In this document: in pieces, positions 1,491-53,720 of the stretch | Layout: each line of letters opens with the position of its first letter | Position numbering within the stretch: the first letter of the stretch is position 1 | Assembly: GCA_002168225.1 (NCBI GenBank) | Contig: NHBH01000001.1 | Span: 1,126,370 to 1,190,369, forward strand | Source: Micavibrio sp. TMED2 | GTDB lineage: Bacteria > Pseudomonadota > Alphaproteobacteria > TMED2 | DNA length: 64,000 nt | Direction: 5' to 3' | Translations under genes and position numbers: made by a program | The notes under the pieces: generated by a model | Told to the model about the DNA's origin: nothing | Databases searched by the model: none | Seen by the model: only the letters and a program-made list of their open reading frames with translations

Positions 1491-2373
1491 TCATCGGGTC
1501 GGTTGTGGCGGGTCCTGACTGTAATCATAGAAGCCCTTGCCGGTCTTGCGACCGAGCCAGCCCGCCTCGACATATTTGACGAGCAGCGGGCAGGGGCGAT
1601 ACTTGCTGTCGGCGAGGCCTTCATAGAGCACATGCATCAGTGACAGGCAGGTATCGAGACCGATGAAATCAGCCAGCTCCAGCGGCCCCATCGGGTGATT
1701 GGCACCGAGCTTCATGGCTTCATCAATGGCAGTAACAGAGCCGACGCCCTCATAAAGCGTATAGACCGCTTCATTGAGCATGGGCAGCAGCACACGGTTG
1801 ACGATGAAGGCCGGGAAATCCTCGGCAATGATCGGTTTCTTGCCCAGCTTGTCAGCCAGTGCCTTCGCCAGTTCGAAGGTGGCATCATCGGTGGCGATCC
1901 CGCGGATGATCTCGACCACCTGCATGGCCGGTACCGGGTTCATGAAGTGCATGCCGATAAAGCGGTGTGGCCGGTCGCTGCTGGCACCCAGCCGGGTGAT
2001 GGAGATTGATGAGGTAGCGGTCGCCAGCATGGCATCGGGACGCAGATCGGCGGCGATGGCCTTATAGATGCTGCGTTTCGCATCCTCGATCTCGGAGACC
2101 GCCTCGATCACTACATTGGCCGTTCTGACCTGAGACAGGTCAATGCCGCTCTGCAGATTGGCGAGATAGCCGTCATGGCTGGCCTGGTCGATCTGACCCC
2201 TCTCCAGCTTTCGGGCGAAGGTATCCTTCAGATTTTCCGCTGCTATCTTCAGCTGTTCTTCTGACTGGTCGATCAGGATGACCTTGAAACCGGTGGTCAG
2301 TGCTGTCTGGGCGATGCCGGTGCCGATCTGACCTGCGCCGATGATGGCGAGCGTTTCCAGCGTAGTGGTACTC
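1491..2373 (-). CDS. hbd: 3-hydroxybutyryl-CoA / 3-hydroxyacyl-CoA dehydrogenase
   Basis: Rossmann motif IGAGQIG at N-terminus, strong family resemblance; ORF trimmed to internal Met MSTTTLETLAIIGAG. Confidence 0.85.
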
Positions 2374-2465
2374 ATTGGTATATCTTTCACAATAATGCTG
2401 CGACGCAATAAACAGGGTTTTTGCATTCTTGTCGAGCAATGCCGCTCAGCACCGAGCAAACGCCC

Positions 2466-2927
2466 TTACGGTTCGCGGGTATAAACCGTGCCTATGGTCA
2501 GGTTCTTGCGCGGTCCCCTGATGGTCCAGTCAAGCTGCCACTGGTTGTCCGAGAGAACAGTGATGGTGCCGATATAACGGTCCGGTGGGCATGAATGGTC
2601 AATATCCGCCCGCCCGAGACTATTCGGCAGGTCAAAGAACGGGCACCCATCGTCGAATGTGATGCGGGTCATACCGTCATCGGCCTGAATCACCCGGTAA
2701 TCGCGCCATGCCTCGCCTTCATAGGTGCCGATGCTGAGCGTGCCGTGCTCGTGCCAATGCATGTTTGCCGGGGCATTCTCTGTGAAGCTGGCCGTGCCGG
2801 TGAGGGTGCCCTGCTGGCCGGTCAGGTGGTCATGGATTTGTCTGGCCAGATGCCACTGGCCAGACAAATAACCGATCCATGCCTGATCCCGGCAAGTTGG
2901 GTCAGAGTGCTTTGGCAAGCTCTGCAT
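2466..2927 (-). CDS. hypothetical protein between etfA and hbd
   Basis: ORF in same orientation within etfBA-hbd operon; start ambiguous (long ORF overlaps etfA 3' end); no recognised motif. Confidence 0.3.
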   Translation of the reverse strand: MQSLPKHSDPTCRDQAWIGYLSGQWHLARQIHDHLTGQQGTLTGTASFTENAPANMHWHEHGTLSIGTYEGEAWRDYRVIQADDGMTRITFDDGCPFFDLPNSLGRADIDHSCPPDRYIGTITVLSDNQWQLDWTIRGPRKNLTIGTVYTREP

Positions 2928-3843
2928 CAAGCTGCGGCAGGGCTTCAAACAGGTCGGCGACCAGACCGTAATCGGCAATCTGGAAAATCGGCGCTTCCTC
3001 ATCCTTGTTGATGGCGACGATGACCTTGCTGTCCTTCATGCCTGCTAAGTGCTGAATGGCACCGGAAATACCGACGGCGATATACAGGTTCGGCGCCACG
3101 ACCTTGCCGGTCTGGCCAACCTGATAGTCGTTGGGCACATAGCCCGCATCAACCGCAGCCCGTGAGGCACCGATGGCGGCATTGAGCTTGTCGGCAATCG
3201 GCTCAAGCAGGCCGAAGTTTTCAGCCGAACCAAGCCCGCGACCACCGGAGATAACCACATCGGCGGAGGTCAGCTCGGGGCGGTCGCTCTCGGACAGCTC
3301 CTGACTGACGAAGGAAGACAGGCCGCTGTCGCCCTTGGCGCTGACCGCCTCGATGCTGGCACTGCCGCCCTCGGCTGCCGCCGGATCGAAGCCGGTGGCG
3401 CGGACGGTAATAACCTTGATCGCATCGCTGGATTGCACGGTGGCAATGGCATTGCCGGCATAGATCGGGCGCTTGAAGGTATCGGCGCTCTCGACCGCGG
3501 AAATGTCGCTGATCTGCTGGCTGTCGAGCAGGGCGGCGACCCGTGGCATCAGGTTTTTGCCGGTGGTGGTCGAGGTCATGAGGATATGGCTGTAGCCACT
3601 GGCGATATCCGCCACGATCGGTGCCACGTTCTCGGCCAGCATCTTGTCCAGTTCCGGCGCATCGGCGTGGAGTACCTTGCTGACGCCGCTTATTTTGGCG
3701 GCGGCATCGGCGATGGCCTGCTTGCCGGACCCGGCGACCAGAACATGAATGTCACCACCGATTTCGCTGGCGGCGGTAACGGCATTGAGGGTGGCTGACT
3801 TGAGTTCGCCGTCCTGATGCTCTGCAATGACGAGTATGCTCAT
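2902..3843 (-). CDS. etfA: electron transfer flavoprotein alpha subunit
   Basis: Full-length EtfA-like sequence (MSILVIAEH..., FAD-binding C-terminal half); adjacent to etfB. Confidence 0.9.
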
Positions 3844-4595
3844 TATCCGATCACCTTTGCTTCGTTTTTCAGTTTCTCAACCAGTTCCTCAACGCTGGCG
3901 ACCTTGCCACCGCCCTGACGTTTGGCGGGTTCTTCAACCTTGAGGGTTTTCAGACGCGGTGCCGTGTCGATGCCGAGATCGGCCGGTGTCATGGTCTCAA
4001 GCGGCTTTTTCTTCGCCTTCATGATATTCGGCAGTGATGCATAGCGTGGTTCGTTCAGGCGCAGATCGGTAGTGATGATCGCTGGTAATTTGACCTCAAC
4101 GGTCTGCAAACCACCATCGATTTCGCGGGTGACCTTGGCAGTGCCATCGCCGAGCTCAACCTTGGAGGCAAAGGTGGCCTGACCCCAGCCGAGCAGGGCT
4201 GCCAGCATCTGACCGGTCTGGTTGCTGTCGTCATCAATCGCCTGTTTGCCGAGGATCACGAGGTTTGGCTGTTCCTTGTCGACCAGTGCCTTCAGCCCCT
4301 TGGCGACGGCGAGTGGCTCGAGCACATCATCGGTCTGGACCAGAATGCCGCGATCGGCACCCATGGCAAGGGCGGTGCGAATGGTTTCCTGAGATTGCTG
4401 GACGCCGAGGCTGACCGCGACGACTTCCTCGACTTTGCCGGCTTCTTTCAGGCGGACGGCCTCTTCGACGGCGATTTCGTCAAAGGGATTCATCGACATT
4501 TTGACATTGGCGGTTTCAACACCGCTGCCATCGGCTTTCACGCGAATTTTGACATTGTAGTCAACGACCCGCTTGACGGGGACGAGCACCTTCAT
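3843..4595 (-). CDS. etfB: electron transfer flavoprotein beta subunit
   Basis: [20 protein letters not shown]-terminus typical of EtfB; 1-nt junction with etfA. Confidence 0.9.
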
Positions 4596-4838
4596 CGGCG
4601 ACCTCTCACTCTTGTTGTGCCGGGGTCAAGAGGCGGACCTCCCGATCGATCCGGCGTTTCCTTGGTTTTGCCGGGATCGTGCCTCGCGCGATGCGGGCGA
4701 CGTGTTTCCGGCTCTATATCAATAATTTACATGCAAACAGGTAGGGCAAGTTGCCTTGTTGGGCAACCTCGCTCGCATGGGATTGACGATTTCACAGTGG
4801 ACGATAGGTGGAACCGGCTTTGCCTGTCAATCGCTTGC

Positions 4839-24285: not shown

Positions 24286-25583
24286 TCTTTTGGCTCCACC
24301 AGAATGGCGCGGAAGTCGTTGACATTGGTCAGCGTCGGCCCGGTCATGACGAGGTCGCCTGTCTGCTCAAACAGGCTGTAGCTGTCATTGCCGCGCAGCA
24401 TGGCATCGGCGTCAATCCCGGCTTCGCTGGCACGGGTCAGGGTCTCAGGGTCGATGATCGCCCCGGCATTGTCCTCGGACCCGTCAATCCCGTCGGTATC
24501 GCAGGCAATGGCGGTGATGCCCGCCGCCCCGGCGAGGTCGATGGCCAGTGCCAGGCTGAACTCGGCATTGCGCCCGCCGCGGCCCTTGCCACGCACGGTG
24601 ACCGTGGTTTCGCCGCCGCTCAGGATCAGCGCGGGTGCAGTGACCGGCTGGCCGTGTTTCTGAACCTGTCGGGCGATGGCGGCATGGACCTTGGCCACCT
24701 CGCGTGCCTCGCCCTCGATGGCATCGCTGAGGATAATCGGCGTCAGGCCGTGTTCCTCTGCCGCCTTGGCAGCGGCCTCGAGCGCCATCTGCGGCGTGGC
24801 CAGCATGATGGTCTGGGTCTTGTCAAAGATGCTGTCGCCGGGTTTCGGCGTTTCCGGTTCGGCCTGATCGAGCCAGTCGGCCACCGGGCCGGGCAGGTCG
24901 ATTTCATAATCGCCGAGGATTTGTTTCGCCCGCCCGAAGGTCGAGGGATCGGGTACGGTCGGGCCGGAGGCGATGGTTTCCGGGTCATCGCCCGGCACAT
25001 CGGAGATCAGGAACGACACCACCCGCGCCGGATGGGCGGCGGCGGCAAGCTGCCCGCCCTTGATCGCCGAGAGGTGTTTGCGCACCGCATTCATCTCGCC
25101 GATATTGGCCCCGGAGCGTAACAGGGCGTTGGTCACGGCCTGTTTGTGCTCCAGCGTCAGGCCGGGTGCGGGCAGGGCGAGCAGGGCCGAGCCACCACCG
25201 GAGATCAGGCACAGCATAACATCGTCAGCGGTCAGTTCCTCAGCCAGTGCCTTGATCCGTCCGGCGGCATCCATCCCGGCCTGATCCGGCACTGGATGCG
25301 CGGCCTCAACGATCTCGATCCGCTCGCAATCAACGGCATGGCCATACCGGGTGACGATCAACCCCTCGATCCGGTCGAACAGGCCCTTGTCCTTCGCCCA
25401 TGCCTCAACCGCGGCACCCATGGCGGCGGAGGCCTTGCCAGCACCGGTGATCACGATCCGGCCCTTGACCCGGTCGAGGTCGAGGCGGTCGAGCGCCGGG
25501 CCGACAATCTTGTCAGGCAGGCATACGGCAAGGGCTGCCTGAAACACTGAGTTCAGGACATCGCGCGGATTTCTGTCGGTCAT
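24282..25583 (-). CDS. glycerate 2-kinase (MOFRL family)
   Basis: Full-length resemblance to MOFRL/TtuD glycerate kinases (ITGAGKAS, CLISGGGSALL). Confidence 0.75.
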   Translation of the reverse strand: MTDRNPRDVLNSVFQAALAVCLPDKIVGPALDRLDLDRVKGRIVITGAGKASAAMGAAVEAWAKDKGLFDRIEGLIVTRYGHAVDCERIEIVEAAHPVPDQAGMDAAGRIKALAEELTADDVMLCLISGGGSALLALPAPGLTLEHKQAVTNALLRSGANIGEMNAVRKHLSAIKGGQLAAAAHPARVVSFLISDVPGDDPETIASGPTVPDPSTFGRAKQILGDYEIDLPGPVADWLDQAEPETPKPGDSIFDKTQTIMLATPQMALEAAAKAAEEHGLTPIILSDAIEGEAREVAKVHAAIARQVQKHGQPVTAPALILSGGETTVTVRGKGRGGRNAEFSLALAIDLAGAAGITAIACDTDGIDGSEDNAGAIIDPETLTRASEAGIDADAMLRGNDSYSLFEQTGDLVMTGPTLTNVNDFRAILVEPKE

Positions 25584-25682
25584 GGAAGCTAAGGCCGTCT
25601 GGTGGCTGTGCCGGTATCAGGCGGGTTGCCTGCTTAAGGCGCGGTTGAGGCGGATCAGTTAAGGCAGGTCAGTTGTAGCAGG

Positions 25683-26198
25683 TCAGCGGTTCTTGCGGAA
25701 ATTGTCGAGCGAGACAACCTCGCCGGTCTTCTCTTCACCCTCGACCTTGTCGCCATCATCGCCGTCGGTGTCGTCACCGTCGATTTCGCTGATGCTGCCG
25801 GCTTCCGGTGTTTCTCCATCATCATCCTCGTCATCATCCTGATCCAGCCCCTGGAACTGCAGGGCGAAATTCACGGATGGATCGGCAAAGACGGTGATCG
25901 AGGCAAACGGGATAACCAGCCGCTCGGGCACATTGTTGAAAGTCAGGGTGACGGTGAAGTACTCATCGGTGATTTCCAGACCATAGAACTGGTACTGGAG
26001 CACGATGGTCATTTCGGCGGGGTAGCGTTTGCGCAGGTATTCCGGCACTTCAACGCCGCTGTCGGCGGTGCGGAAGGTGATATAGAAGTGTTGCTCACCG
26101 TTGAGGCCCTGCTCGGCCACGGTTTGCAGAACCTTGCTGACAACGCCGCGCAGGGCGTCCTCAACCAGTACGTCATAGCGCATGTCGGTATCCGACAT
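25683..26198 (-). CDS. sspB: ClpXP adaptor SspB (alphaproteobacterial type)
   Basis: YDVLVEDALRGVV...HFYITF...MTIVLQYQF core, acidic linker, C-terminal VVSLDNFRKNR resembling the ClpX-binding tail of alpha-type SspB. Confidence 0.55.
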   Translation of the reverse strand: MSDTDMRYDVLVEDALRGVVSKVLQTVAEQGLNGEQHFYITFRTADSGVEVPEYLRKRYPAEMTIVLQYQFYGLEITDEYFTVTLTFNNVPERLVIPFASITVFADPSVNFALQFQGLDQDDDEDDDGETPEAGSISEIDGDDTDGDDGDKVEGEEKTGEVVSLDNFRKNR

Positions 26199-26355
26199 AT
26201 ATTCTACCCATTGTCAGAACTGGCGGCCGTTTAACGGGCCACTCTTGATATTATCAGGTCAGATTAACGATTGCGCGGGCGAAAACAACAACGCTTTGCG
26301 TTTTCCCATCGCTTGCTGTCGCTTTTTTCACGTCATCTCCGGTGTCATCTTCAAC

Positions 26356-26422
26356 GTCATTCCAGCGAAAGCTGGAATCTCGATGACAGCAGCGCTTGGA
26401 TTCCAGCTTTCGCTGGAATGAC
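26356..26422. repeat. nested palindrome: two 23-nt inverted arms (GTCATTCCAGCGAAAGCTGGAAT / ATTCCAGCTTTCGCTGGAATGAC), each arm itself a hairpin
   Basis: Read directly from sequence; 21-nt spacer; lies between ssrA 3' region and sspB start. Confidence 0.7.
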
Positions 26423-26454
26423 AGGCGGTTGGTTGAGCGACCGTAAAAGCTGGC

Positions 26455-26875
26455 GTGAAAGAGAAGTGGAGGCCTTCTGTTGCTAGGCGGCCTCCGGTCC
26501 CCACCCTAGACGGCAAAGCCTAGGGAATTAAATTTCAGTATTACGCGCTGCCTTAGGCTGCGAGTGCTACTGGAGCTGCGTTATTATCGTTTGCAACTAT
26601 AATATAGCCCGATAACGGCGGTACCATACCGGGAACAAACGTTATCTTTACTGCGCGTGTCGATCCTGTTTCGCCCCCATCCCGGACCGCCCGACGATGA
26701 CGGGTTTTGCAACCCATCGATCCGGCGGATTTCCCGGATCACTCAAGGTCTGTATCAAGCCAAGCCCCAAGTGATCCCGGAAATGGTGGAGGCGCCGGGT
26801 ACTGCCCCCGGGTCCACAACGCCTATTCCATAACGCGTTTAGCGCCATAGCCGGTAAACCGGCATGGATAGATAT
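26455..26875 (-). ncRNA. ssrA: tmRNA (ssrA), circularly permuted two-piece type: acceptor piece ending CCA at 26784, coding piece starting GGGGGCGAAACAGGAUCGACACGCG at 26678
   Basis: Minus-strand tag ORF at 26594..26553: GCA AAC GAT AAT AAC GCA GCT CCA GTA GCA CTC GCA GCC TAA, giving ANDNNAAPVALAA-stop. 5' GGGGGCG pairs with 3' CGCCUCC-A-CCA. Permuted gene order (CCA piece upstream of GGGG piece) and pseudoknot-like helices downstream. Outer boundaries approximate. Confidence 0.75.
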
Positions 26876-27127
26876 AGGTCATTCGGCCCGGTTGTTAAAG
26901 GGCAGGGACAATTTCTCGGAATCGGACTTGGAAAATGACATTTATACACAAATGAATCACAACCATGGCGATTCGAATTTTGTTTTAAAAACAAGGGGTT
27001 TTGATTCTTATCAAGAGGGCGTGAATGAAATGAATATCTTAGCTGTTGACGGTTGAAAACAGCGGTTTTGTGAACGTACGCGCATCTCTAAGTTGCTCCT
27101 CTCTGCACAAAATTGAGGATATAGACC

Positions 27128-28135
27128 GTGAACCACGAAGTTTCGCTTGAAATGCAAAAAGATTCAGACCGTTCAAATTCTGAAGTCGGTAAAAAGCGAG
27201 ACCGGATCAGCCCGGAGCAGCGCGCGGAAATCGACGAACAGAAGGCCCAGCGCTACGACACCCGCCGCGCCACCGTCCCGGCGCTTGAGGAAATCCTCTA
27301 TGAGCCGATCCCGCTGCTCGATCACGGCTTTGTCCGGGTTATCGACTATATGGGCGATGACAGCGCGATCGTACAGGCCGCGCGCGTTTCCTACGGCAAG
27401 GGCACCAAGAAGGTCTCCACCGATGCCGGTCTGATCAAGTACCTGCTGCGTCACTGGCACTCGACCCCGTTCGAGATGTGCGAGATCAAGTTCCACATCA
27501 AGCTGCCGATCTTCATCGCGCGCCAGTGGATCCGCCACCGCACCGCCAATGTGAACGAGTATTCCGCCCGCTACTCCGTCCTCGACCGTGAGTTCTATAT
27601 CCCGGCCCCGGACCAGCTCGCCGCCCAGTCACTGACCAACCGTCAGGGCCGCGATGACGAAGCCGTGCTGCAGGGTGAACAGGCCCAGCGCGTGCTCGAT
27701 ATCCTGCGTGATGACGCCTACCGCACCTATGCCCATTATGAGGAGCTGCTGAACGAGGATTCGGAAGGCAATGTGATCGACGAGAGCCGCACCGGTCTCG
27801 CCCGTGAACTGGCGCGCATGAACTTGACGCTGAATACCTATACCCAGTGGTACTGGAAAACCGACCTGCACAACCTGATGCACTTCCTGCGTCTGCGGGC
27901 CGACAGCCACGCCCAGTACGAAATCCGCGTCTATGCCGAGGCGATGACCGATGTGCTGCAGAAATGGGTGCCGCTCACCCATGCCGCCTATGAGGAATAC
28001 CGCGAAGGCGCGGTCAACCTCTCCAAAACCGGCCTGTCCGTGGTCAAACGCCTGATCGCCGGCGAAACCGTCACCCAGGAAACCAGCGGCCTCTCCCCAC
28101 GCGAATGGCGCGAACTGATGGAGCAGGTGGGGTGA
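27128..28135 (+). CDS. thyX: FAD-dependent thymidylate synthase
   Basis: ThyX motif [15 protein letters not shown]; GTG start (ATG alternative at 27146). Confidence 0.9.
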
Positions 28136-29025
28136 AAATAGGCTCGCAGAGTCGCGTAGTAGAAAAGATAATTGAGCCTTTTGCTGCGTTTGTGCAGCAA
28201 AAGAACCGTGAGGTGCCTAATCCTCCAGAAATATTGTGGCACTACACTACATACGATGCATTTATCTCTATTATTAAGGATCAAAGTTTAAGGTTATCAG
28301 AGTTAGGCTACCAGAATGATTCTGGGGAGTACTGGTTCTTTAATGAAATTGTGCAAGGTTCCTTACGGAGTATGCAAGAAAATAACGACGAAGTAATTAA
28401 ATCTGCTAATTATTTAAGGCAATTTTTCTATCAGGCGGGTTTTCGAGGATTTTCAAATGTTTTCTCTTTTAGTTTGACCGAAAAGGCCGATAGCCTGAGT
28501 CAATGGCGAGCATATGCTAATCATGGAGAGGGAGTAGCGTTAGGGTTCTCTGTGGGAGATGTTCCCGATGGTGTTTATTTGGGTCGTTGTTATTATTCAG
28601 AAGTTGGTGACAAAGAGTTTGATGATGTTTTTAGGAGCGTTGTCATTAATCTATCTAATAGTTTTAAGCATAATGATGGCAATCATAATTTAAGTATGGC
28701 GGGTCTGGTCGCCAGCGCATTAATTAAAATTATTTCTGAGGCTTCACCATACGTTAAACATAAGGGTTTCGCAGAGGAGTGTGAGTGGAGAGTTACATCT
28801 TATGGCGGTGAAGATAAGGCTGAGTACGATTTTTTTGCTAAAAATTATGGAATGGTAATGGCTAAAAAAATAAAATTTTCTGCTGGATTGTCTTTGAAGA
28901 AGGTTATGATAGGCCCATCTCCTTTTATGCTTAGAAATAAATTTACTGTTAGTGCTTTCTTGAAACAAAAAAACTTGAATGTAGAGGTTTTATCTTCAGA
29001 AATATCATATAGAAAGCAAGCATAA
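28105..29025 (+). CDS. DUF2971-like protein encoded in an AT-rich insertion
   Basis: [24 protein letters not shown]...NDSGEYWFF resembles the DUF2971 N-terminal HYT...NDPxE signature. The coding region is strongly AT-rich relative to flanks. ORF opens at ATG 28105 inside thyX; alternative GTG at 28132 overlaps the thyX stop. Confidence 0.5.
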
Positions 29026-29184
29026 TTTATTCCCGGTTCTAGAAGCCACACCCGCCCTGCAGGGAATGCAGGACAGGGTTGAAGGGGTGGTTTTGGGGTT
29101 CAGGTTTTCGCGTTGGCGGGGTCTAACTGTTTTCGCAACCTCATCTCCCCCGGCCATGATTGGCCGATGTATGTTGTGTGATCC

Positions 29185-50990: not shown

Positions 50991-52043
<1,053 letters not shown>

Positions 52044-52063
52044 GTAATACTATAATTATAGCA

Positions 52064-52100
52064 AAAAGCACTGGTGCCTAACGGCCCAGTGCTTTTTTTT
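52064..52100 (+). terminator. rho-independent terminator of ilv operon
   Basis: AAAAAGCACTGG...CCAGTGCTTTTTTTT stem-loop with 8-T tail. Confidence 0.75.
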
Positions 52101-52119
52101 AACGGGTGTTCTTTAGGCT

Positions 52120-52749
52120 ATGAATGATCGCGACTATCAACAAGATTCTGATGCAACATTAGATGTTGCGAAAAAAGCTCTTGAGGCTCTGGAGCGACAA
52201 CAGTCAGGCGATACAGATAAGCCAGGAAGGGCGGCTCTTTATAAAATTTTTATCGGAAAAGATTTTGAAAAATATAAAAATACGTATTTGAGTTTTTATA
52301 AGAAAAAAAAGAAAATAGTGCTTAGCTTTTGTTTTCTTCCTCTTTTATCTCCATTCGTTTGGTTTGTGTATAGAAAGCTTTATCTATATTCAGCGTTATA
52401 TGGATCAATAACGATGTTTATTGTATTTGGATCAATAATGCTCAAAATCAGAGGGTTATGGGATATTTTGCCTTTGTGGTTTCTTTTGCGGTTTTTTTTC
52501 TGTGGCTTTGGCAGGTTCTTTGTTCTCTTAAGATTCAAGGGCCTGTATGAAAATTTTGTCAATGAGCGGATCGATGCCAAAAAATACTTTAAAGATATTG
52601 GCGGAGTGAACATTTGGGGCGCCAGATTGGCTGCTATTATTGTTATTGCAATCTTGGGTGTTTTATCGGTTCCATTCGTTTATTTATACTTTCATTTCTG
52701 CACTATTCCTGGAGTTCAGTGCGGCATAAGTCTGAAGCTCAGTTTTTAG
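52120..52749 (+). CDS. DUF2628-like membrane protein in AT-rich insertion
   Basis: YKKKKKIVLSF...FVWFVYRKLYLY resembles DUF2628 core; region markedly AT-rich compared with flanks. Confidence 0.45.
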   Translation: MNDRDYQQDSDATLDVAKKALEALERQQSGDTDKPGRAALYKIFIGKDFEKYKNTYLSFYKKKKKIVLSFCFLPLLSPFVWFVYRKLYLYSALYGSITMFIVFGSIMLKIRGLWDILPLWFLLRFFFCGFGRFFVLLRFKGLYENFVNERIDAKKYFKDIGGVNIWGARLAAIIVIAILGVLSVPFVYLYFHFCTIPGVQCGISLKLSF

Positions 52750-52751
52750 GC

Positions 52752-53720
52752 TTATTGCGTGCCGACCGGGCCGTAGAGCGGGGTCGGGGCCTGGCTTGCG
52801 CGGGCGGCCTGTGCTGCCGGGGTATGGTTGAGTTCGCCATATTTGGCGACGCTGGCGCGGCTGGTTGATGGCGGTGCACTTTCCAGCGGTACCGCATGGA
52901 CATCGGCCCGGCCCGGTGGAATGGCGACGCGCATCCCATCCTGTGTCGAAACGAAGTGGCCGCGATCGGTCGGGATGCGATTGCCTGGTGCGTTGCGTAC
53001 CGGGCCGACGGATCCGGGTGCACCGACTGCCGGACGGGATGGTGGCAGGGATGAGACCTGTGCCGCATCAAGTGCCTTCTGGATCGGACCGGCACTAGCG
53101 GGCGCTTGCCCTTGTTGTGGAGCGGCGGCCATTTCATTCATTCTGACACCGCCCGGTGCCTTCATGCGCTGTGCGCCCGGGGCTGCGGAGGCAGCTGCCG
53201 GTGCGGCAGAGACCTGCGGCTGCATCTGATGGGCTTGCGCGGTGGCGGCCGGTGCCGGGCTGACCGGCATCGGGTTCATGGAAACCGGATTGGCGGGCTG
53301 GATGCCATCGGCCACCGGCTCACCGAAATTCGGCATCTCGCAGGGGAAGGCCCGTTGCAGCGCCAGCGACAGGAAGACCGGTGCCGGTTCATCCAGTGCT
53401 GCCGGTTCACGGAAGGCGAGGCGGGTCAGGGCGGAGGCGGCGGTCTGGGCAGAAACCCGTGCCCGTGGCGGACAGAATTCCGGCTCGCGGCCATTCACCT
53501 GATCCTGCAATACCCGGTCGAGGAAGCCACGGAGATAGGCAGAGCACTGTGCCAGATCCAGCTCCGGTTGTTCGGCGCGCGCCTGACACAGCAGCAGCAG
53601 CTCGCGCGCTCCCGTCGCCTGCGTCTGGGCGGCGGCATCGGTGCTTGGGGCGACAACAGTGAGCGCGGCGGCAGTAGCGGCAGCGATCATCACGGGGCGA
53701 AATATATATGTCATGCTCAT
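52752..53720 (-). CDS. secreted Ala/Pro-rich hypothetical protein
   Basis: Signal peptide MSMTYIFRPVMIAAATAAALTVVAPS, low-complexity Ala/Pro/Gln-rich C-terminal half. Confidence 0.4.
   Translation of the reverse strand: MSMTYIFRPVMIAAATAAALTVVAPSTDAAAQTQATGARELLLLCQARAEQPELDLAQCSAYLRGFLDRVLQDQVNGREPEFCPPRARVSAQTAASALTRLAFREPAALDEPAPVFLSLALQRAFPCEMPNFGEPVADGIQPANPVSMNPMPVSPAPAATAQAHQMQPQVSAAPAAASAAPGAQRMKAPGGVRMNEMAAAPQQGQAPASAGPIQKALDAAQVSSLPPSRPAVGAPGSVGPVRNAPGNRIPTDRGHFVSTQDGMRVAIPPGRADVHAVPLESAPPSTSRASVAKYGELNHTPAAQAARASQAPTPLYGPVGTQ

Follow-up and report, generated by a model that had tools for sequence, protein, structure and literature searches.

Hotspots of integration and defence that are flanked by core genes keep near-identical flanks around unrelated cargo, and this cargo is rich in toxin-antitoxin (TA) and defence genes and comes without an integrase. 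Among single-gene defence systems, Aristaios is a 316-amino-acid (aa) DUF2971 protein encoded on the lactococcal plasmid pUCCL641 and has been confirmed by experiment to act by abortive infection (PMC11381338); it blocks transcription as well as protein production by the phage (PMC13064643, PMC12967558). A survey of ADP-ribosyltransferase (ART) families places DUF2971 beside DarT, AbiGi and Tox-ART-HYD1 and predicts a DarT-like ART for the family, with a conserved tyrosine, an ExE motif and large helical inserts as its traits; DarT itself is specific for thymidine in single-stranded DNA (PMC12522546).

This study followed up a DUF2971 gene that lies directly behind thyX in a 64-kb window (the whole stretch of DNA that was analysed) of a marine alphaproteobacterial chromosome. 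The features of the locus, with positions counted along the window, are as follows:

26465..26903, minus strand: tmRNA gene ssrA of the permuted alphaproteobacterial type, 1.2 kb from the insert
27128..28135, plus strand: thyX, FAD-dependent thymidylate synthase (Pfam Thy1, E = 8e-58), the conserved left flank of the slot
28120..28123, plus strand: GGAG Shine-Dalgarno-like motif in Met-Glu codons of thyX, 8 nt 5' of GTG 28132
28132..28135, plus strand: GTGA, the putative DUF2971 GTG start overlapping the thyX TGA stop, as read from the sequence
28132..29025, plus strand: DUF2971 gene, 297 aa from GTG 28132 or 306 aa if from ATG 28105
28136..29051, no strand: variable AT-rich cargo segment of 916 bp (GC 0.37), delimited by alignment with blastn break-points 28135 and 29052
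29043..29095, plus strand: predicted hairpin with CCCTGCAGGG, then GGTGGTTTTGGGG, the right boundary of the slot by folding and by alignment to a close relative (L097)
29185..30045, plus strand: GC-rich gene for a 286-aa protein, the conserved right flank

The insert stands out by its base composition. In steps of 200 bp, the GC content was 0.59-0.63 at the end of thyX, 0.32-0.41 over 28200..29000, and again 0.59-0.67 by 29100. The stretch 28136..29025 (GC 0.372) was the lowest 890-bp window within the 64 kb (z = -5.6, against a mean GC of 0.588 with sd 0.038 for the 64-kb window), and GC at third codon positions (GC3) was 0.322 in the DUF2971 gene vs 0.68-0.79 in eight neighbouring genes. The only long ORF of the AT-rich stretch opens at ATG 28105 or at GTG 28132 and ends at 29025. 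An earlier note on this DNA had described both an abrupt fall in GC after the thyX stop, with recovery some 900 bp on, and a reading frame opening inside thyX at one of these two codons; the 200-bp profile with GC3 bears out the first, and the sequence with its ORF list bears out the second.

The main finding came from comparing this locus with its relatives. The best ThyX identity in the GTDB representative set was 76%, with none closer, and the close relatives therefore all came from metagenome contigs:

Seven contigs with identical ThyX (100%; L091 to L093 shown): same arrangement and same DUF2971 gene
L081 (P0001), 99.9% nucleotide identity, ThyX fragment identical: same DUF2971 gene kept
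L097 (Tara, CEUS01214559.1), ThyX 98.4% (aa) and 97.8% (nt): unrelated 2142-bp four-gene segment without DUF2971
L097 cargo gene 1: 220-aa ORF without a family match
L097 cargo gene 2: Gp49/HigB-like toxin (E = 2.7e-25)
L097 cargo gene 3: HTH_37 antitoxin, HigA-like (E = 6e-25)
L097 cargo gene 4: AT-rich gene for a 235-aa membrane protein
L082 to L085, ThyX 87.6%: DUF2971 gene 40% identical and joined to thyX through the same GTGA, followed by an HNH_2 gene
L095 (GCA_019192455.1), ThyX 88.9-89.4%: thyX has a hairpin of its own and is followed by two unrelated ORFs in 1.2 kb of AT-rich DNA
L094 (GCA_039814445.1), ThyX 89-92%: another AT-rich ORF, on a contig that stops 470 bp past thyX

Cargo polymorphism was absent among the seven contigs with identical ThyX and L081 and was seen at about 98% ThyX identity, in L097. 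There, blastn homology to the window runs up to the final base of the thyX stop codon (28135) and is picked up again at 29052; the right flank, aligned over 3.4 kb, is 95.9% identical (nt), with 97-100% identity in the four proteins encoded downstream. No gene other than the DUF2971 gene lies in the variable segment of 916 bp, and 28136..29051 is, judging by these alignments, one exchangeable cargo of a small hotspot whose borders are the thyX stop and a conserved hairpin. The earlier note had proposed a horizontally acquired gene and a comparison of thyX-downstream regions in relatives. The gene is foreign-looking and not conserved in position, with other genes at its place in the relative with 98% ThyX, and the comparison did reveal presence/absence polymorphism (no DUF2971 in L097, unrelated ORFs in L094 and L095). 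The proposed graft of a single gene was right as to the lone cargo gene and wrong as to a one-off event, because the slot has seen cargo turnover within the clade. By MOFRL and ThyX identity the window is nearest to L094, not to L082, and the two DUF2971 carriers are thus not sister lineages.

One contig, L096 (Logan ERR594331), combined a ThyX of 88.7% identity with a 100% identical DUF2971 and was considered as a recombinant. The sliding comparison points to a chimeric assembly instead: the contig (positions 1..1440) is identical to the window from about window position 27550 on, and its 5' half of thyX is just 55-78% identical. Since L096 is most likely a chimera joined in a conserved stretch of thyX, it was left out of the comparisons.

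Composition alone carries less weight than the L097 comparison, from which the direct evidence for exchange comes. DUF2971 genes are low in GC across the family: at 77 of the 80 viral or prophage loci the gene was below its own flanks (median -12.6 points), which weakens low GC as proof of recent arrival, and low GC by itself therefore cannot date the acquisition. The DUF2971 genes of L082 to L085 have a GC content of 0.36-0.38 vs 0.65-0.70, and the L082 allele is thus still AT-rich despite 60% protein divergence.

Further AT-rich single genes were observed nearby. Within the window, 51961..52790 (GC < 0.45) holds a second one, ORF 52120..52749 (plus strand), directly 3' of a core gene, the ilvC-like ORF 51024..52043; its 209-aa membrane-like product gave no match in Pfam and PADLOC scans, and a comparison with the AT-rich membrane ORF of L097 found no kinship. 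On L082, 2101..3100 (GC 0.37-0.42) holds a lone gene amid GC-rich core genes (ORF 2311..3078, plus strand, 255 aa, no Pfam match). In this lineage, small inserts of one AT-rich gene each appear to be frequent.

At the right boundary, conservation with L097 begins within the hairpin's left arm, at 29052. The hairpin includes the palindrome CCCTGCAGGG (29055-29064), which the earlier note had placed at the point of GC recovery. As a significant structure the hairpin was rejected, with a fold z-score of -0.25 (not significant) and no flag in a simple terminator scan; its conservation and U-runs suggest that it may be the terminator of the thyX unit. The 286-aa protein that follows gave no match in Pfam or PADLOC and is 97% identical in L097 and 46% identical in L095. 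Because the gene for it is present in L097, which is without DUF2971, this gene and the DUF2971 gene are not partners. Farther downstream, two tandem paralogous ORFs on the minus strand (32036..32713 and 32783..33490; 225 and 235 aa) share long identical stretches, e.g. TEARHALQSALLPQPG, and have no Pfam match in the L091 gene calls.

The absence of an integrase and of direct repeats, reported before, was confirmed: the ORF list of 25000..33000 contains no integrase-like ORF, and a repeat search of 26800..29400 found no meaningful flanking direct repeats. The tmRNA gene is indeed close, as had also been pointed out, and its suggested role as an island hotspot does not hold, since thyX lies in between and the ssrA 3' end (26465, minus strand) faces away. 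With the thyX stop and the hairpin as the break-points of the slot, the tmRNA gene is not the insertion target, and a tmRNA island was rejected on these grounds together with the lack of integrase and repeats. Beside the tmRNA gene, a 68-nt stretch of L097 (308-375 in reverse-complement coordinates) aligns in either orientation with 26355..26422 of the window, suggesting a REP-like palindrome there.

At the left junction, thyX ends in TGA (28133-28135); its start is approximate, as homologues align from about residue 22. The AT-rich stretch 26907..27193 (0.40-0.46), which comprises the tmRNA-thyX spacer and the first ~20 thyX codons, differs in the 98% relative L097. The GGAG motif ahead of GTG 28132 recurs in L082, L094, L095 and L097 owing to its place in the codons for the conserved ...LME... 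of ThyX, and no GGAG-like motif lies 5' of ATG 28105. Gene callers on independent metagenome contigs picked the GTG (P0001, 297 aa), the 40% identical homologue of L082 (P0002) begins at the equivalent GTG with an N-terminus (V-IGS...) that aligns from the first residues, and residues 3-26 form a confident helix in the predicted structure model. On this combined evidence GTG 28132 was taken as the start, with ATG 28105 as a possible alternative.

A scan between thyX and the DUF2971 gene found no plus-strand promoter-like or terminator-like site. The sole sigma-70-like match in 26800..29400 lies antisense within the DUF2971 gene (28729..28757, minus strand; TTAACG, 17 nt, AATAAT) and may be due to chance in AT-rich DNA. 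Co-transcription and translational coupling with thyX would be the simplest reading of the junction; the coupling, already suggested in the earlier note, is supported by the GTGA overlap, the GGAG 8 nt upstream and the same layout in the 40% identical homologue.

The end of ThyX itself also points to an old junction. In all five lineages (the window, L082, L094, L095 and L097) the protein ends in LG or VG directly before the stop, vs 43 of the 44 outgroup ThyX proteins listed that run 1-10 residues longer, mostly 2-4 (e.g. LGRSEG or LGREA before the stop; the exception is L032). This suggests a left junction that became fixed a single time, in the clade's ancestor, with cargo turnover since; in that ancestor, incoming DNA may have taken the place of the last thyX codons and their stop.

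The protein encoded by the insert is near certain to be a DUF2971 member. It matches the Pfam profile (PF11185) at 37.6 bits vs a cut-off of 22 (E = 5.7e-9), with the whole 89-position profile covered, and has no other Pfam match at E <= 1. With this score above the gathering threshold, and with the motifs WHYT and NDxxE present in the protein and invariant in the family alignments, the DUF2971 identity and the HYT...NDxxE N-terminal signature that had been read from the letters both stand. All 14 family-invariant columns in an alignment of 120 sequences are kept (H37, Y38, N62, D63, S123, Q124, W125, Y128, G134, Y155, K209, E216, E218 and R220), the family motifs HYT, NDxxE, DSLSQWRxY and ExEWR all occur, and the protein is a single domain of 297 aa in a family of about 270-330 aa. 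Identity to most of the aligned members is only 20-28%. A profile search returned more than 1100 DUF2971 proteins of similar length, and an exhaustive search returned 8224 cluster representatives at E <= 1e-3, of which just three reached E <= 1e-30; within this very large family, the window protein is therefore divergent. Some of the 120 relatives also touch other Pfam families, namely Tox-ART-HYD1 (25 relatives) and AbiGi (13). The PADLOC profile PDC-S31 is matched by 99 of the 120 close relatives (best E-value 1e-12) and by the window protein weakly and in part (E = 9e-5 over 55 residues in the DSLSQWRAY region); a literature search gave no paper mentioning PDC-S31.

The predicted structure model very probably represents an ART fold in which two large helical inserts and a helix at the N-terminus are added to the ART core. 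Its nearest folds are DarT and Tpt1, which act on nucleic acids: Thermus DarT (7omv) scored 9.3 with 134 residues aligned, followed by Mycobacterium tuberculosis DarT (7yk3, 9.2), yeast Tpt1 (7yw4, 8.8), Thermosipho DarTG (7omu, 8.4), Escherichia coli DarT1 (8baq, 7.3) and the DNA-ADP-ribosylating toxin Scabin (5ewk, 5.6). Foldseek gave the same top match, weakly (E = 0.028), and a sequence-profile search of the PDB gave chance matches only and no DarT, so that the fold comparison is the informative one. The candidate H-Y-E-type residues H37, Y128, Y155 and E216-x-E218 are invariant in the family and agree with the motif description in the survey of ART families (PMC12522546).

Genes for relatives of the protein were found on 101 plasmids, including 48 conjugative ones. 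At least 116 IMG/VR viral contigs carry relatives too, as do a handful of phages and satellites. The link to thyX was considered as a family-wide trait and rejected, with no DUF2971 homologue at any of 80 thyX loci from GTDB genomes and no thyX within 5 kb of any of 80 viral DUF2971 loci; in the loci surveyed, the linkage is local to the clade of the window. The neighbourhoods of several homologues were observed to contain genes of nuclease or defence type: an HNH_2 gene beside the thyX-linked allele (L082, 9427..10353, minus strand), an HNH gene adjoining the homologue on L089 (3842..4597, plus strand), an Abi_C gene with an integrase and Dam on L086 (6309..7118, minus strand), and NACHT and PIN genes on L090 (190..2376 and 4371..4775). 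No other defence genes flank the DUF2971 gene in the window.

Combined, the results favour a reading in which swappable cargo encodes a thyX-coupled DUF2971 ART that serves as a stand-alone anti-phage abortive-infection protein, and the probability of this whole chain is put at roughly 0.55. The thyX promoter would drive transcription of the gene, and ribosomes would re-initiate at the GTGA (GGAG, 8 nt, GTG overlapping TGA). The protein would be kept silent, perhaps through its helical inserts, and become active on a phage cue; with NAD+ as substrate it could then ADP-ribosylate a nucleic acid (DNA or RNA) or, with lower probability, a protein, and thereby stop phage gene expression as Aristaios does. 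A defence or abortive-infection role had been offered earlier as an idea, and the DarT-like fold, PDC-S31 and Aristaios (PMC11381338) lend it support as a predicted role. Coupling to an essential housekeeping gene would be unusual for a toxic abortive-infection effector and counts against the defence reading.

An alternative is that the gene is a selfish or neutral hitchhiker, a toxin-type ART kept in a slot that is hard to delete cleanly and without a part in phage defence. Such an origin would suit a start codon that shares bases with the stop of the essential thyX, the HigB/HigA-like addiction module in the same slot of L097, the foreign-like composition and the lack of defence neighbours in the window. 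It is nonetheless unlikely, given that the protein is full-length and confidently folded with 14 of 14 invariant residues kept, that the 40% identical L082 allele is intact too, that one DUF2971 member has proven anti-phage activity (PMC11381338), and that L097 demonstrates clean replacement of the cargo.

A more speculative idea, and a doubtful one, is that the interval from the thyX stop to the hairpin acts as a built-in expression socket that couples unrelated genes to thyX, where a DarT-like enzyme might also be tied to thymidylate metabolism. In such a socket, the conserved Met-Glu codons would provide the GGAG and the stop codon would provide the TG of an NTG start; its users would be the two DUF2971 alleles and possibly the 220-aa ORF of L097 (TTG in GTTGA, a tentative start). 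The enzyme could, for example, fire when phage takeover upsets thyX translation or the dTMP supply and then modify thymidine in DNA. On current evidence, a DarT-like enzyme beside a thymidylate synthase is read as a coincidence.

It is more improbable still that the protein is a delivered or secreted ADP-ribosylating effector aimed at rival bacteria or at grazing eukaryotes. An effector function is predicted for about 18% of DUF2971 proteins, and Legionella members are candidate effectors (PMC12522546); in the window protein, however, the N-terminus is not signal peptide-like (residues 3-26 form an amphipathic-looking helix that is packed in the model), no secretion-system, Rhs, PAAR or immunity gene is adjacent, and the closest folds are the intracellular nucleic-acid ARTs. 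Least probable is a physiological partner of ThyX that modifies thymidine in DNA or regulates thymidylate supply: GTGA coupling in two lineages whose DUF2971 has diverged to 40% identity and a closest solved fold, DarT, that is thymidine-specific in single-stranded DNA (PMC12522546) would fit it, but L097 lacks the gene at 98% ThyX identity, L094 and L095 hold unrelated cargo, the two surveys of 80 loci each found no linkage, and distant homologues occur in mobile or defence contexts.

For the preferred reading, a stand-alone abortive-infection ART in an exchangeable slot, the DUF2971 family, its predicted chemistry, one validated anti-phage member and hotspot behaviour of this general kind are already known. 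Less ordinary are the position of the slot inside a transcription unit, as read from the junction, two diverged alleles that appear to borrow the thyX stop for their start, and the closeness of a DarT-like enzyme to a thymidylate synthase. The relative with 98% ThyX that is without the gene, and the aligned break-points at 28135 and 29052, are new and provide a cleanly delimited natural exchange of cargo with break-points known to the base. The locus also adds a predicted antitoxin-free DarT-like ART to an uncultured marine alphaproteobacterial lineage, with expression signals drawn from an essential gene. If its activity were confirmed, Aristaios-type DUF2971 defence would reach from dairy Firmicute plasmids to ocean bacteria, and a small antitoxin-free ART would be at hand for studying how such enzymes stay silent. 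On present evidence, this is one more member with its context rather than a new principle.

Compared with known systems, the locus most resembles Aristaios in being a single gene for a protein of about 300 aa that is nearly all DUF2971, with a predicted ART fold and a place in exchangeable DNA (PMC11381338, PMC13064643), a likeness drawn by description. Like Aristaios, the DUF2971 gene stands alone, with no partner gene in the 916-bp segment. Aristaios is plasmid-borne, from a Firmicute and experimentally anti-phage, whereas the window gene lies on a marine alphaproteobacterial chromosome in a thyX operon and has a predicted role. PDC-S31 is a candidate single-gene system inferred from defence-island association, which most of the relatives match and the window protein matches partially. 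DarT of DarTG (7omv, 7yk3, 8baq) shares 14-16% identity with the window protein and is without its two long helical inserts and N-terminal helix. No DarG macrodomain antitoxin adjoins the window gene, whose neighbours are thyX and the gene for the 286-aa protein; membership in DarTG was rejected for this reason and because neither a DarT Pfam match nor a DarT in the PDB profile search was found.

With core-gene-flanked hotspots the slot shares conserved flanks, unrelated cargo between strains, TA- and defence-type genes and the absence of an integrase. It differs from them in being very small (0.9-2.1 kb), in lying within a transcription unit from stop codon to hairpin, and in holding at least two alleles whose start codon would be borrowed from the stop of the essential gene before them.
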